Below are positions 2 to 58,000 of a stretch of 64,000 bases of DNA, one piece after another. The notes below the pieces were generated by a model. The model had not been told where the DNA came from and did no database searches. It saw only the letters and a list, made by a program, of their open reading frames with translations. The first letter of the stretch is position 1, and every line of letters begins with the position of its first letter. Position numbers and translations under genes: made by a program. Source of the DNA: Bacteroidales bacterium (GTDB taxonomy: Bacteria; Bacteroidota; Bacteroidia; Bacteroidales; UBA932); NCBI GenBank assembly GCA_963677675.1, contig OY782180.1:712084-776083 (forward strand), read 5' to 3'.

Positions 2-691
2 GACAGCCCGGATGAAATTCCGGAACTCTATGACATGGTGATGAACGGAGGGTATGACCTGGTTTCGGGATGGAAGAAGAAGAGAAAGGATAATAAACTT
101 GCCAAAAACCTGCCGTCAAAAATATACAACGCCACTGCAAGAAGAGTTACAGGCATAAAGCTGCACGATATGAACTGCGGTCTTAAGGCATATAGAAAGG
201 CTGTTATAAAGAACATTGAGGTTTATGGAGAGATGCACAGGTATATTCCATATCTGGCAAAAAATGCAGGTTTCCGGAATATCGGGGAAAAAATAGTAAA
301 ACATCAGGCAAGAAAGTTTGGAAAAAGCAAGTTCGGTATGAACCGCTTTATTAATGGCTTTCTTGATTTAATTTCTCTCTGGTTCTTATCGAGGTTTGGA
401 AAAAAACCGATGCACTTTTTTGGGGCATTTGGCAGTTTTACATTCTTTATCGGTTTGGCCACTTCTGTTTATCTGATTATAGACAAAGTAGTTTCACAGG
501 CTCAGGGGCTTAAATTCCGGGCAGTTACGGACCAGCCGCTTTTTTATGTTTCACTTGTAGCACTCATAATTGGTATGCAGCTTTTCCTCGCAGGTTTCCT
601 GGGCGAACTCATATCAAGAAGCAGCAGTGAGAGAAACACATACAAAATAAAAGAGCGTCTTAATTCAGACGCTCCTTCTTCAATACAATAA
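2..691 (+). CDS. Glycosyltransferase family 2 (ArnC/polyprenol-phosphate glycosyltransferase-like), 5'-truncated by the window edge
   Basis: The frame stays open upstream of the listed ATG to base 2 (DSPDEIPELYDMV). Motifs SGWKKKRKD, LHDMNCGLKAYR, YGEMHRYIP; two C-terminal TM helices. Confidence 0.9.
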   Translation, partial: DSPDEIPELYDMVMNGGYDLVSGWKKKRKDNKLAKNLPSKIYNATARRVTGIKLHDMNCGLKAYRKAVIKNIEVYGEMHRYIPYLAKNAGFRNIGEKIVKHQARKFGKSKFGMNRFINGFLDLISLWFLSRFGKKPMHFFGAFGSFTFFIGLATSVYLIIDKVVSQAQGLKFRAVTDQPLFYVSLVALIIGMQLFLAGFLGELISRSSSERNTYKIKERLNSDAPSSIQ

Positions 692-51737: not shown

Positions 51738-54700
51738 ATGACAGAGAGCGAAAATAAAAGAGTAAATATTGTTCTAAAGGAATTCAACATAGGTATGGGG
51801 ACCCTTGCAGATTTTCTTAGAATTAAAAAGATTGACATCGCATTAACACCCACTGCAAAATTAGCACCTGAAGTGTATGCCCTCATTCAGAAAGAGTTTG
51901 GCAAAGAACAGCTTATCAAGGAACAATCCAAGAAGGTAGCGATTACCGTTAAGGATATTACAGATAAAGCAGAACAGCACAAACATGACGAGAGGGACGA
52001 AGATGTTCAGGTGAGAGAGGTATTTATTAAAACCTCTGTAAGCGAGCCGCCTCAACCTAAAATTGTGGGAAAAATGGATCTCGACAAGCCTGTGGCGAAA
52101 GCGGTTCCCCAGCCAATTTCACACCCGGCTCCTCAGCCAGCACCACAGCCAGTTGTAATTCCGCCAGCACCTCAACCTGTGCCTCAACCGCAGCCGGTTG
52201 CAACGCCGGTACAGCAAACCGAGCAAAAACCTGTTTCTAAACCTATAGAACAGCCTGCAATCGCACAACCCGAAGAACAAAAGGTACAACCCGAGGAACC
52301 AAAGGCAAAACCTGAGATTAAACCGGAACCTGAAGTTAAAGCAGAAGCGAAAGTTGAAGCGAAAGAAGCAACTGAAACCAAGCCGGAAGTTGAAACAATA
52401 AAAGTGCCTGAAGTTAAAGCAGAGGCCGAAGTAATAAAAGAACCAGTTCAGGAGATTTTAAATATCGAAGCTCCACGGATTGAAGAGCCTAAAATAATTG
52501 GCAAAATTGATCTTACTCCGCGTAAAAAATCTATTTCACGCAAAGAGGAGAATACATCAGCGCCAAAACACGCACACGGCCCAAAACCGGAATCCGACGT
52601 AAAAGCAAAAGAGACTCCTAAAATCAAACCGGCAGAAGAAGTTCAGGCTCAGGCAGAGCAGGATATTCCGGCGCCTATTGAACACATTGAGACAAAATTT
52701 GAAAAGCTTGCCGGATTGAAGATTAGCGGAAGCATGGATATTACTCAGTTTGAGAAGAAGAAACCGGAGCTTACGTTAAACATAAACAAGGGCAAAAGAG
52801 AAAGAATACATAAAGGCGCCAAGGAGAGAGTCGATCTTAACAAAGAGATTGGCGTAGACCGTAAAGCCGTTGTTAAAAGCGATAACCAGGCAAAGGGGCC
52901 TAAACCTCCTCAGCCAAAAGAGGGACAGGGACCTGCGAAGCATCTGCATGTTCAGAAAGCAAGCAAAGACCGTTTTAAACCGGTAAGAGCAGAAGTTGAC
53001 GAAGATCAGGTACAAAAGCAGATTAAGGAGACCTATGCAAGGATGACCGAGGGGAAAGGAAAAACAAAAGGCTCTAAATACCGCAGAGACAAGAGAGATG
53101 TTGCAAGCCAGAAAATGATGGAGGAGCAGGAGCTTCAGGAGCAGAGTTCTACTATCTTAAAGGTAACGGAATTTGTAACTGTAAACGACCTGTCTGTTAT
53201 GATGGACGTTCCTGTTACAAGGGTTATCGAAGCTTGTATGAATCTTGGTCTTATGGTTTCTATAAACCAGAGACTTGATGCCGAAGCAATGGTTCTTGTG
53301 GCCGAAGAATTCGGATTCACCGTTGAATTTGTTACTGCAGACCTGCAGGGAACGGTTAAGGTAGAAGAAGATTCCGAAGACAAACTCACTGCACGCCCTC
53401 CTATTGTTGCCGTAATGGGACACGTAGACCACGGAAAAACATCCCTGCTCGACTATATCCGTAAAGCAAATGTTATTGCAGGAGAAGCCGGGGGTATTAC
53501 CCAGCATATCGGGGCATACAATGTTATGCTTCCAAGCGGTCAGAGAATTACATTCCTGGATACTCCGGGTCACGAGGCGTTTACAGCAATGCGTGCCCGT
53601 GGAGCGAAAGTGACAGACATTGCAATTATCATTATTGCTGCAGACGATGCCGTGATGCCACAGACACGTGAGGCAATCAACCACGCACAGGCTGCAGGCG
53701 TTCCGATGATTTTTGCAATAAACAAGATAGACAAGCCCGGAGCAAATACAGAAAGGATTCGCGAACAACTCGCAAATATGAACCTTCTTGTTGAGGACTG
53801 GGGCGGAAAATACCAATGTCAGGAAATCTCTGCAAAACAGGGACTGAATGTCGATAAATTGCTTGAAAAAATCCTTCTCGAATCTGAGATGCTCGACCTT
53901 AAGGCAAATCCGGACAAGAGGGCACACGGAACAGTAATTGAATCTTCTCTTGACAAAGGCAGGGGTTACCTTGCAACAGTACTGGTTCATGCAGGAACGA
54001 TGAGAGTTGGGGATATCATCCTCAGCGGAAGTCATACCGGCAAGCTAAAGGCTATGTATAACGAGCGTGGTCAAAAGGTTACCGAAGTGGGACCTTCCAC
54101 TCCTGTATCCATACTTGGTCTTAACGGAGCACCTGCTGCCGGGGAGTTGTTTAATGTAATGGAAGACGAGAAAGAGGCAAGGGACATTGCAAACAAACGC
54201 GAACAGCTCATCCGCATACAGGGAATCAAAACCCAGAAACACATCACTCTTGAGGAAATTGGCCGTCGTATTGCAATCGGAAACTTCCAGGAACTTAATG
54301 TTATCGTGAAAGGCGACGTGGACGGTTCAATTGAAGCTTTATCGGACTCACTTATAAAACTCTCAAACGAAGAGGTTCATGTAAATGTAATTCACAAAGC
54401 TGTTGGAGCCATCTCGGAAAGCGATGTTCTTTTGGCAGCTGCTTCAAATGCAATCATTATCGGATTCCAGGTTCGTCCTTCGTCAAATGCGCGTAAGATT
54501 GCAGAGAAAGAACAAATTGAAATTCGTCTCTACTCTGTAATATATGATGCGATAAACGAAGTGAAAAGCGGTATCGAAGGTATGCTTGCCCCTGAAGAGA
54601 AAGAGGAAATTACAGCAACAACCGAAGTTCGCGAAACATTCAAGATTTCGAAGGTTGGAACAATTGCAGGTTGTATGGTTAAGGAAGGTAAACTCAGCCG

Positions 54701-54902
54701 TAATGCAAAAATCCGCCTTATACGCGATGGTATTGTAATATTCAGCGGATCGCTCGGTTCACTCAAAAGGTTTAAAGACGATGTGAAGGAGGTTGCATCC
54801 GGTTACGACTGCGGTCTTAACATAGACGGGTTCAACGATATTAAGGTTGGCGACATTATCGAAGCCTACACAATAGTTGAAGTGAAGAGAAAACTTTCGT
54901 AA
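51738..54902 (+). CDS. infB: Translation initiation factor IF-2
   Basis: [32 protein letters not shown]; Pro/Glu/Lys-rich N-terminal linker. Confidence 0.99.
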
Positions 54903-54926: not shown

Positions 54927-54962
54927 AGAGCCGGGGGTTAAACAATATTAACTTCCGGCTCT
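54927..54962. terminator. Inverted repeat between the convergent infB and murB-fusion genes
   Basis: AGAGCCGG..GTTAA...TTAAC..CCGGCTCT. Confidence 0.5.
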
Positions 54963-57280
54963 ATTTCTATATTGAAACGCTCTTTTACTGCCTGCTGAAT
55001 TTCATGGGCAAGGGCAAGAAGTTCCTCCCCCTTTGCTCCTTCGTATGCAAGAAGAACCAATGGCTGGTTTTCATGAACCCCAACATTCCCAAATCTTTTT
55101 CCCTTAAACCCACAGTTGTCTATGAGCCATGCTGCAGGAACTTTGCAAAAGCCTTTGGCAGCCGGGAATATTTTAAGTGACGGATTGTCTTTCTGAATAG
55201 AGAGGGCAAGCTCTTCATGTATCACCGGATTTTTAAAGAAACTCCCCACGTTCCCAACAACTGCAGGGTCGGGCAGTTTTGTGCGGCGGATGTCAATAAC
55301 AATGTTCCTCACATCATTTATTGTTGGTTGCGCAATGCTTTCCAAAGCGCGGGTGAGATCGGCATAGCTGCTGTTGACAACTGGCACTTTGGACAAAGAG
55401 AACGTTACAAAAGTAATGGCAACTTGTCCTTTAAGTTCATTTTTGAAAATTGAGTCCCTGTATCCGAATTTACATTCTTCTCCTTTGAGACTCTTTACTG
55501 CACCGCCTGCAAGCTCTACAAATTCTACCTTTACAATTGTATCTTTTGCTTCTGATCCGTATGCACCTATATTTTGAACCGGAGCCGCGCCAACACAGCC
55601 CGGAATGAGAGACAAATTCTCAAGCCCGCCCCATCCTCTGTCCACGGCATAAGCAACAAGGTCATCCCACTCCACGCCTGCTCCCACTCTAAGCAAAACA
55701 GTATTTTCATCGTCTCCTGTTATTTTTATCTCCATCATGTCCGGATGAATGAGCAGACCGTTGTAGTCGCCTTTAAACAAAATATTTGAGCCTGACCCTG
55801 TAACCATTTTGTCAATGGATTTAAAGTCCTCAGTTGAAATAAGTTCCTGAAGTTCTTCAACCGATGAAGGAGCGGCATACCAGTCGGCGAGAACCCTGAA
55901 TCCTAAAGTATTAAGCTTCTTTAAATCTTTTTTCCATTCAACTTTGCACGTCATATCTTTTATTCTGTTTTTTATAAGTTCGGCGCCAATTACATTCTGA
56001 GACTCCTTGGCAACGTCCTCTTTTATGTATTTGTGGGTGTATGCAAACCGGCAGATATAGCGCATTATAACAATGAGAAGAAGTATCGCTATGGCTGCAA
56101 TTTCCGAAAAAAGCTGTTCACTTATGAGCCCTTGTGCTGCAAACAGCTCCGGGTCCTCGGTAATGATTCTGTCCAGTTCCTTATTTGGCACCCCGGACAT
56201 CTTCTTTGCAAAGTCTGTCCGCGACCATTTCCCCGTAACAACGCCATCATTGATGTAAACCATTCCGCCGTTGGAACGGTTCATGGAAACGAGGGTTTTT
56301 ATATCTGCATGAAATATCTCAAACGGAATATTGTATCTGGCGGCAATGCTGTCAATATCAGCTGCCGAAGACCCAAAAAGCGCATAATTATGCACGCCTT
56401 TTGCGGCGAGCGAATTATAAAGCCAGGACATGGCCGAAAAGTCTTCTTTCGATAATTTTTCAGGATAAGGAATAGAATATATGAAAACAATTTTTTGAGA
56501 AAGTATCGAGTCGGTAATGTAGTTTCCGTTTCTGTCGGAAATCGCGAAATCGATTATACTGCTTTTTAAAGAGGAGTTTACGGGTGTGCTCTTTGAATCA
56601 ACAAAGGTCCATGTAGAATCGGGGAGGTTGTCCAGCTTGAAGCTCTCTGTTTTCCCGTTTTTGGAGTAATATAAGGTTGTTTCAAATGCAGGTGCCTCCG
56701 GATTTTTGAGACTCAGGATTTCCTCCCTGATATCTGTGCCGACCCTGTACGGAAGGAAGTCTATTACAGGCAAGTGCCTGTATGAATAGACAGAGATAAA
56801 AACAATCATAACCGCATAGACACCAACGAATCCAAGTTCCCAGTTCTTGGGCGCAATAGGGATAAAGTTCCCCCTCTCGAAATAGAGGAAAATTGCAATT
56901 ATGAGTAGTACTATATTTTTATTGAACGTTTGCCAGTTGGTGAGTTTGATTACCTCTCCAAAACATCCGCAATCGGCTATCGGGTCAAAAAGAGCAAGGA
57001 AGAGAGTAAGAATTGTGAAGAAAGATATAAATACAAGAGCAGATTTGCATGCAAACTTCATCCTTAATCCAAGAAGCAGCGAGATACCAATAAGCATCTC
57101 AGCACCGGCAAGGAATGCGCCAAACATCATAGGGATAACAGTTAAGTTTTCAATCCCGACGATTTTGAAATACTCGCTCACAATGAGCCCGCCTCCAACA
57201 GGGTCAATGAGCTTTACAAATCCCGCAAACAGGAAGGTAAAACCCAAAATAAGCCTGGCTAATGCCCTGAATAATTTCAT
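54938..57280 (-). CDS. murB: Fusion of a BT_3928/DoxX(MauE)-family membrane protein (about aa 1-415) and UDP-N-acetylenolpyruvoylglucosamine reductase MurB (about aa 443-780)
   Basis: N-part FAGFVKLIDP, CGCFG, IDFLPYRVG; C-part GSGSNIL, GLENLSLIPGCVGAAPVQNIGAYG, FGYRDSIFK, GSFFKNP, EPEV; no stop codon between them. Confidence 0.9.
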   Translation of the reverse strand: MKLFRALARLILGFTFLFAGFVKLIDPVGGGLIVSEYFKIVGIENLTVIPMMFGAFLAGAEMLIGISLLLGLRMKFACKSALVFISFFTILTLFLALFDPIADCGCFGEVIKLTNWQTFNKNIVLLIIAIFLYFERGNFIPIAPKNWELGFVGVYAVMIVFISVYSYRHLPVIDFLPYRVGTDIREEILSLKNPEAPAFETTLYYSKNGKTESFKLDNLPDSTWTFVDSKSTPVNSSLKSSIIDFAISDRNGNYITDSILSQKIVFIYSIPYPEKLSKEDFSAMSWLYNSLAAKGVHNYALFGSSAADIDSIAARYNIPFEIFHADIKTLVSMNRSNGGMVYINDGVVTGKWSRTDFAKKMSGVPNKELDRIITEDPELFAAQGLISEQLFSEIAAIAILLLIVIMRYICRFAYTHKYIKEDVAKESQNVIGAELIKNRIKDMTCKVEWKKDLKKLNTLGFRVLADWYAAPSSVEELQELISTEDFKSIDKMVTGSGSNILFKGDYNGLLIHPDMMEIKITGDDENTVLLRVGAGVEWDDLVAYAVDRGWGGLENLSLIPGCVGAAPVQNIGAYGSEAKDTIVKVEFVELAGGAVKSLKGEECKFGYRDSIFKNELKGQVAITFVTFSLSKVPVVNSSYADLTRALESIAQPTINDVRNIVIDIRRTKLPDPAVVGNVGSFFKNPVIHEELALSIQKDNPSLKIFPAAKGFCKVPAAWLIDNCGFKGKRFGNVGVHENQPLVLLAYEGAKGEELLALAHEIQQAVKERFNIEIEPEVNIV

Positions 57281-57948
57281 ATCTCAATATGAGTTTTGAT
57301 AAGGTTGAATATATCGGAAGCCGGCAGCATATCTCCATTGCTGTCCGAACACTCTATGCGTACAAACCCGGGGTCGCGTTTACATTCCTTAAGATAACGC
57401 TCACGAACCTCAGACTGGAAATCTATACTTGCCTCGTGAATGTCTTTTTTCCCTTTCAGATATTCTCTGTCGTCACCTGCCCTGCTTTCGCTCAGCTTTT
57501 TATCGACAAAGTTGAGCGGAACGTCCAGAAACAAGTTCAAATCCGGCTTTGGAATAGCAAATTTTGTGTATTCGGTGTCGAATATCCAGTCTCTTAAATT
57601 TTCTGCTTCTTCCTTGTCTTTCACTTTGGCGCACTGGAAAGCAATGTTTGAATAAAGGTACCTGTCAAGAATTACACAATATCCCTCTTTAAGCCATTCC
57701 CTTATCATATCAGCAGCGTCCTTCCTGTCGCCGGCAAAGAGAAGAGCAATTAAATACGGGTGAACCTGCTCTATGCTTCCAAGGTCTCCTCTTAAAAAAC
57801 GGGCTATCAAATCGCCATAAACCGGCGAGTCAAAACGCGGGAAATGAAGATATTTAACTACCACTCCCCTGTCTTCAAAGTATTTTTGCAATAGATTGAT
57901 TTGCGTAGATTTACCAGCTCCGTCCAAACCTTCTAACACTATCAACAT
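57277..57948 (-). CDS. tmk: Thymidylate kinase
   Basis: EGLDGAGKST, FPR, LDRYLYSNIAFQ, PDLNLFLDV. Confidence 0.96.
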   Translation of the reverse strand: MLIVLEGLDGAGKSTQINLLQKYFEDRGVVVKYLHFPRFDSPVYGDLIARFLRGDLGSIEQVHPYLIALLFAGDRKDAADMIREWLKEGYCVILDRYLYSNIAFQCAKVKDKEEAENLRDWIFDTEYTKFAIPKPDLNLFLDVPLNFVDKKLSESRAGDDREYLKGKKDIHEASIDFQSEVRERYLKECKRDPGFVRIECSDSNGDMLPASDIFNLIKTHIEI

Positions 57949-58000
57949 AATAAAAAGCTATATTTGTGTAATGAACAAAGTTAGGTAATTAATAGAATAT

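Follow-up and report, generated by a model that had tools for sequence, protein, structure and literature searches.

MurB fused in frame to a BT_3928-family membrane protein in one clade of uncultured Bacteroidales

Background

In bacterial VKOR-thioredoxin fusions, a quinone-linked thiol oxidase core of four helices is followed by a fifth helix and a periplasmic thioredoxin-fold domain. A second family, MauE, includes two proteins that replace DsbB in E. coli and whose CXC motif is required for this. Its hallmarks are a periplasmic CXC followed by F-G in the loop between transmembrane helices (TM) 3 and 4, a lysine on TM1 and a glutamate on TM2 near the predicted quinone site; MauE-thioredoxin fusions are common (bioRxiv 10.64898/2026.03.05.709764). 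For the Mur enzymes of peptidoglycan precursor synthesis, natural chimeras have been described, i.e. MurE-MurF, MurC-Ddl, MurC-MurB, MurG-MurC, MurD-FtsW and MraY-MurG, in a survey that covers named species only and lists MurB only as a MurC fusion (PMC10214165). The present analysis concerns one gene of a 64,000-nucleotide stretch of DNA from a Bacteroidales bacterium (contig OY782180.1 of assembly GCA_963677675.1, positions 712,084 to 776,083; hereafter the window), in which a BT_3928-family membrane protein with a MauE-type core and a complete MurB share a single open reading frame (ORF).

This fusion resembles the Mur chimeras in design and not in composition. As in the chimeras, a cytoplasmic precursor enzyme lies in one polypeptide with the product of a neighbouring gene, and the arrangement is restricted to a clade; in MurD-FtsW and MraY-MurG, too, a soluble Mur enzyme is tethered to a polytopic membrane protein. 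In contrast to all of them, the partner is a predicted MauE-type thiol oxidase (BT_3928) and not an enzyme of the peptidoglycan pathway, and the MauE/BT_3928-MurB architecture is absent from the survey (PMC10214165). Our literature search found no MurB-membrane-protein fusion in Bacteroidota, and no paper on the BT_3928 family. With MauE, the membrane half shares the four-helix core, the CGC-F-G signature, the TM1 lysine, the TM2 glutamate and a thioredoxin-fold domain behind an extra helix (bioRxiv 10.64898/2026.03.05.709764). It differs from the MauE-thioredoxin fusions in that its thioredoxin-fold domain is free of cysteine and in that a sixth helix returns to the cytoplasm, where MurB is attached; its oxidase role is itself read from the sequence. 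The design order of core, fifth helix and periplasmic thioredoxin-fold domain is the same in the VKOR-thioredoxin fusions, which however belong to another membrane family, carry CxxC in their thioredoxin domains and have no cytoplasmic enzyme attached.

The fused gene and its two halves

The gene was first noticed in a sequence-only reading of the window, which gave its coordinates exactly and no strand; it lies on the minus strand (Table 1). The frame contains no internal stop and its predicted product has a mass of about 88 kDa. NCBIfam and Pfam agree with the original description, a membrane module joined to a complete MurB. The BT_3928_fam model (NF045576) matches residues 6-357 with 352 bits for a cut-off of 250 (model positions 3-357 of 358), and the MurB model PRK00046/NF000755 matches residues 447-780 with 404 bits for a cut-off of 277 (model positions 4-335 of 343); TIGR00179 also scores above its threshold (230 bits vs 144.5). 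The Pfam domains are MauE (PF07291, residues 1-133, 53 bits for a cut-off of 27), FAD_binding_4 (PF01565, residues 467-596) and MurB_C (PF02873, residues 657-780). The N-terminal module had been described as a MauE/DoxX-like protein of the BT_3928 type: the MauE and BT_3928 assignments hold, whereas DoxX (PF07681) stays under its gathering score in the fused ORF (17.7 bits vs 23.6), this match being an overlap with the related MauE model.

Table 1. Positions in the window of the fused gene, its parts and adjacent features
Feature	Residues	Coordinates	Strand	Basis or remark
Whole fused ORF, BT_3928-family membrane protein plus MurB	780 plus stop	54938..57280	minus	
MauE-type four-helix core, TM1-TM4	1-135	56876..57280	minus	Pfam MauE, invariant columns, model helices
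CGC motif (C104-G105-C106) of the TM3-TM4 loop, predicted periplasmic active site	104-106	56963..56971	minus	read from sequence
TM5, predicted to return the chain to the periplasm	145-168	56777..56848	minus	hydropathy, model
Predicted periplasmic thioredoxin-fold domain, TlpA/ResA/Bcp type, cysteine-free	169-385	56126..56776	minus	Foldseek
TM6, then basic stretch	386-412	56045..56125	minus	hydropathy, family relatives, model
TM6 hydrophobic core EIAAIAILLLIVIM, then RYICRFAYTHKYIK	393-406	56063-56104		
Predicted cytoplasmic linker, 34 residues	413-446	55943..56044	minus	junction comparison, model
Junction stretch ESQNVIGAELIK	within 413-450			
Met443 ATG	443	55952..55954	minus	aligns with ancestral murB start region
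Complete type-I MurB	447-780	54941..55942	minus	NF000755, alignment to 1MBB
tmk (dTMP kinase)		57277..57948	minus	stop overlaps fusion start codon (ATGA)
TAACTTTG, Bacteroidota-type -7 box, candidate operon promoter 5' of tmk		57976..57983	minus	
Hairpin with 15-bp stem, candidate terminator		54927..54962	called on plus	between convergent infB and fusion gene

As judged from its sequence, the MurB half is complete and its catalytic residues are intact. In the alignment to 1MBB, the positions corresponding to E. coli R159, S229 and E325, which we take to be the catalytic residues of MurB, are conserved, and the motifs FGYRDS, GSFFKNP and EPEV are kept. The fused gene is the only murB of the window's genome (G000, a single closed contig of 2.43 Mb), and likewise of a second closed genome of the fused clade (G018). 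Public annotation labels the 780-residue fused proteins plain MurB, a name that conceals the membrane half.

Recurrence of the fusion

The search with the junction suggested by the sequence-only reading returned independent genomes with the same architecture. With residues 300-500 as query, we obtained 12 protein clusters of 778-780 residues carrying the same three Pfam domains, with 46-95% identity across the junction; these clusters represent about 170 member sequences from independent sources. A scan of species genomes with the junction alone gave an uninterrupted fused frame in 11 named species of metagenome-assembled genomes (MAGs) and a split pair of genes in two. The source habitats of these Bacteroidales MAGs are soil, groundwater, bioreactors and biofilm. 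Two independent assemblies, with 98-99% amino acid identity to the window, differ from it mainly at synonymous sites (proportion of synonymous differences, pS, 0.15-0.26; of nonsynonymous differences, pN, 0-0.013).

The idea that an indel error merged two neighbouring genes during sequencing or assembly draws on the overlap of the genes in close relatives, where a single indel could in principle join them. Against it, the same frame is found in 11 other MAG species and in 12 protein clusters, coming from independent projects and assemblers, the fused junction is longer by 71 nucleotides (nt) rather than by 1-2 nt, and the linker shows selection of the coding type (see below). The chance of such an artefact is negligible and we regard it as effectively refuted; the view that the junction is no simple stop-loss error is borne out by the insertion, by the recurrence of the frame and by the selection on the linker. 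The gene is a genuine in-frame fusion.

The fusion is also narrowly distributed, being limited to one clade of uncultured Bacteroidales. Among 301 genomes (208 genera) the fused frame was found in one, the window's own, and the sample's one other genome of this genus has split genes. In a search of 1.84 billion representatives clustered at 50% identity, 1 protein spanning both halves was present among the 150 matches listed.

One MAG of the fused group (Rikenellaceae bacterium UBA9571, G013; L016/L060) has an ORF that ends 21 residues early, at 759 residues (...AELIALAS), and a different contig of it carries part of a second murB. This MAG is 72% complete, and its short ORF may stem from an assembly error or contamination.

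Origin by insertion between overlapping genes

The phylogenetic distribution of fused and split genes was examined on a tree built from both halves without the linker. The 12 fused rows form one clade (Shimodaira-Hasegawa-like approximate likelihood ratio test support 100), nested among 29 split rows inside a single genus, so placed that on this tree a single change accounts for the pattern. None of the 12 sampled lineages with the fusion has gone back to split genes. The stem branch leading to their clade is unremarkable (0.23).

Each of the other sampled species of the genus (36/36) has a BT_3928-like gene as the direct upstream neighbour of murB, on the same strand. Its product, of about 390-465 residues, already has TM6 and a short basic tail at its end. 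The gene overlaps the murB start by 20-26 nt in the two congeners examined in detail, and in the nearest split sisters the overlapping genes are in different frames. Between the end of TM6 and the NTLG motif of MurB, these nearest sisters have 82-85 nt, out of frame, and the fused clade has 153-159 nt, in frame; the difference points to a net insertion of about 71 nt. From this sequence comparison, the insertion, and not a point loss of the stop codon, joined the frames and made about 24 residues of new linker.

Three other species of the sample (L038, L040 and L046, in genomes G034, G010 and G029) have split genes in the same frame with one stop between them, e.g. ...SVIHDI*PMILERDKDLKRLNTLG. 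We rejected them as intermediates, their tails (...SVIHDI*) being unrelated to the fused linker and their place being on a different branch of the tree. In these species one point mutation, or readthrough, would give a second and independent fusion with a different linker.

Topology of the membrane half

The CGC motif, the sixth hydrophobic helix and the internal methionine were all found where the sequence-only reading had put them. Hydropathy gave six TM segments in the fused ORF. Basic residues mark the N-terminus, the TM2-TM3 loop (RMKFACK) and the stretch behind TM6 (9 K/R in residues 407-446), and the TM1-TM2 and TM3-TM4 loops are acidic; by the positive-inside rule the N-terminus is in, the CGC loop and residues 169-385 are out, and MurB is in. 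An AlphaFold2 model of residues 1-446 agrees with this topology, with a predicted local distance difference test score (pLDDT) of 89.6 and a predicted template modelling score (pTM) of 0.82: helices are formed by residues 2-25, 48-70, 74-98, 115-134 and 145-168, an alpha/beta domain by residues 184-374, and a long helix starts at residue 377. Both lines of evidence thus support the coherent topology that had been proposed, with a predicted periplasmic CGC loop and a predicted cytoplasmic MurB. The predicted position of the CGC loop matches the periplasmic CXC active site defined experimentally in MauE (bioRxiv 10.64898/2026.03.05.709764). In an alignment of 56 family sequences (A3), C104, G105, C106, F107, G108, K23 on TM1 and E61 on TM2 are invariant, and CGC is invariant in two further alignments as well (A1 and A4).

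The alpha/beta domain resembles the thioredoxin folds of ResA, TlpA-like proteins, Bcp (Bcp1) and GPx when compared with the PDB by Foldseek (E about 2e-4, TM-score about 0.6 normalised to the target). Sequence comparison gave weaker matches: AhpC-TSA in Pfam at residues 242-324, and, for the N-terminal profile against the sequences of solved structures, a weak match to GPx5 only (E 0.012). Residues 169-385 contain no cysteine, i.e. neither a CxxC nor a single active-site cysteine. The equivalent domain is also cysteine-free in three stand-alone single-domain relatives; two forms of 630 residues do contain cysteine. Outside CGC, no conserved cysteine column exists among the 56 sequences of alignment A3.

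TM6 and a short basic tail are common to the stand-alone BT_3928 members, which are typically 405-432 residues long and were covering the 430-residue query. These proteins end 8-25 residues after TM6, whereas the fused protein runs on for 370 residues more, into MurB. The comparison indicates that the BT_3928 family had TM6 and a cytoplasmic C-terminus from the outset. Some longer members (P0110, P0116, P0122 and P0123, 632-658 residues) have two tandem periplasmic thioredoxin-fold domains before the terminal TM helix. Family members of 630-658 residues had been candidates for other C-terminal enzyme fusions, and were rejected as such: the periplasmic domain is duplicated and the terminal helix is the same.

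The closed genome G000 gave no match to DsbB or VKOR (PF07884), and its one MauE copy is that of the fusion. On these profile searches, the MauE module of the fusion is the sole recognisable membrane disulfide-forming enzyme of this genome.

The linker and the question of a free MurB

Among the fused sequences, E421, G432, I436, K441 and the subsequent VEW strand are invariant. In the fusion frame, the third codon positions of the linker vary 2.3 times more than the first and second; the ratio of nonsynonymous to synonymous substitution rates (dN/dS) is 0.047 between L017 and L018, and in the closest pairs pN is 0 for a pS of 0.21-0.26. This pattern of substitution points to translation of the linker in the fusion frame and to purifying selection on it. 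In the full-length model, residues 417-435 are disordered (pLDDT below 50). An amphipathic helix in the linker was considered and rejected, since the hydrophobic moment is reached by 13-46% of shuffled sequences in most cases and by 6.8% at best.

The ORF might be fused and the working enzyme still be a free MurB, made by initiation near codon 443 or by cleavage of the linker, in which case the tether would be transient or irrelevant. Met443 does align with the ancestral start region of murB, every fused sequence has an ATG or TTG no more than about 8 codons from the MurB core, and the linker is predicted to be flexible. Bacteroidota can initiate translation without Shine-Dalgarno sites. However, the codon of Met443 is ATG only in the sub-clade of the window; among the 11 aligned fused sequences, five (5/9 when non-redundant) have CAG, CTC, CTG or TTG instead. 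The ATG proposed as a possible start for free MurB is thus present, and is kept in one sub-clade rather than conserved in that role: Met443 is probably what remains of the earlier murB start and not a conserved second start. Moreover, the fused gene offers no upstream stop codon for termination-reinitiation, through which the overlapping split genes are probably coupled, and the coding strand carries no Bacteroidota -7 box (TAnnTTTG) between 55950 and 57280, i.e. over the 1.3 kb before MurB. Matches to sigma-70-type promoters are at chance level (9 found, 6.9 expected), and an internal promoter for the MurB part was dropped on these two results, which are weak negatives. Finally, purifying selection on the linker as a protein is not what one would expect of a segment that is simply removed by cleavage. 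We consider it distinctly unlikely that free MurB is the working form.

Gene linkage and the case for functional coupling

Outside the genus the two genes are not neighbours. In the sister genus and in eight other families (11 genomes where both gene positions were seen), murB and the BT_3928 gene are unlinked, lying on different contigs or hundreds of kb apart, and in ten other families the 1.5 kb upstream of murB contain no BT_3928 gene. The downstream neighbours of the BT_3928 gene were read in three closed genomes of other families: they are either tpiA, directly or behind an Opp-like permease, or the permease and an unassigned ORF. In one of these three, dTMP kinase lies just upstream of the BT_3928 gene, as in the window, where the order is tmk-BT_3928::murB. 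From these gene orders, the tmk linkage also occurs outside the genus, and the downstream placement of murB appears to have arisen within it; the downstream neighbour of the BT_3928 gene is simply a variable housekeeping gene.

The same neighbourhood bears on the annotation of the family: four BT_3928-family clusters of 420-432 residues with a MauE domain only (P0014, P0048, P0050 and P0067) carry the Joint Genome Institute (JGI) name 'triosephosphate isomerase', probably because tpiA lies just downstream of the BT_3928 gene in other Bacteroidales (L062, L063).

The fusion could be read as a Rosetta-stone partnership, in which the BT_3928 module takes part in envelope or peptidoglycan biogenesis, or in envelope sensing, and controls or depends on MurB through TM6 and the linker. 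This would fit the constant adjacency of the two genes in the genus sample, most congeners having overlapping reading frames, the retention of the fusion without reversal in 12 of 12 fused lineages, and the invariance of E421, G432, I436, K441 and the new VEW strand. It would also fit the presence of the BT_3928 family, which is without known function, in almost every one of the 301 Bacteroidales genomes sampled. The lack of linkage beyond the genus argues against it, as do the tpiA or Opp-like permease found downstream in the three closed genomes, which indicate generic housekeeping packing. The periplasmic domain has no redox cysteine, no chemical logic joins an NADPH/FAD enolpyruvyl reductase to a thiol:quinone oxidase, and the stem branch of the fused clade is not unusual. 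A partnership of this kind is unlikely. The more specific version, in which a MauE oxidase of the BT_3928 family is coupled to precursor synthesis and the activity or placement of MurB responds to the periplasmic state via TM6 and the linker, is quite improbable. The link between precursor synthesis and an envelope thiol-redox module put forward by the sequence-only reading is accordingly weakened: the domain is free of cysteine, and the genes are adjacent in one genus only and fused only in a sub-clade of it.

Neighbouring features and other extended MurB proteins

The overlap of the tmk stop with the start of the fusion gene places tmk and the fusion in one operon. On the other side, the hairpin overlaps the last codons of the fusion gene and may terminate transcription on both strands. 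The N-terminal region of the infB product (51738-54902, 1054 residues), about 470 residues long, has a very high content of Pro, Glu, Lys and Gln and contains PQP and KPE repeats.

N-terminally extended MurB proteins from a global search were inspected as candidates for other membrane-tethered forms, and were rejected, being a HAD hydrolase-MurB fusion or probable mis-called starts. In this HAD case (P0162, 552 residues), from a different lineage, a HAD-family hydrolase domain is N-terminal to a complete MurB, an undescribed fusion.

Discussion

The explanation that we consider likely is that of a genuine fusion, kept in every descendant lineage sampled, that yields a membrane-tethered MurB whose two halves work independently. 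It most likely arose from tight packing of the genes rather than from a shared function. The fusion would be viable because the ancestral C-terminus of the membrane protein was already cytoplasmic, so that MurB would come to lie on the correct side of the membrane. Ribosomes translating the membrane protein would have to continue into MurB; the cell's sole MurB would therefore be synthesised already tethered to the membrane's inner face, in a 1:1 ratio with its sole MauE-type disulfide oxidase. The MurB half would reduce enolpyruvyl-UDP-GlcNAc with NADPH and FAD in the cytoplasm, and the MauE core would pass electrons from periplasmic thiols to quinone. The two halves are most likely independent in these activities. 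Any benefit is probably positional, with MurB held near MraY and MurG, or stoichiometric, rather than a redox link, and the tether may be mildly useful. Functional coupling is possible and is disfavoured by the narrow distribution of the fusion, by the generic neighbours of the BT_3928 gene elsewhere and by the cysteine-free periplasmic domain.

Several points weigh against this explanation. The full-length model is only moderate (pLDDT 75, pTM 0.49), and contacts between MurB and the membrane domain are not reliable from it. The retention of the fusion in all fused lineages and the invariant linker residues would also fit a selected functional coupling. With a start codon present near the MurB core in every fused sequence, some internal initiation may occur, as may proteolytic release of MurB.

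With a tethered MurB as the favoured reading, an essential and normally soluble step of peptidoglycan precursor synthesis can evidently run, to judge from the genes, while permanently attached to the inner face of the membrane. This bears on the long-standing idea of membrane-proximal Mur complexes. The locus also documents a route to fusion: overlapping genes, an upstream product with a cytoplasmic C-terminus and an insertion of about 71 nt. It finally draws attention to the unstudied BT_3928 core protein of Bacteroidales, the sole membrane candidate for disulfide formation here and yet the bearer of a thioredoxin-fold domain free of cysteine.

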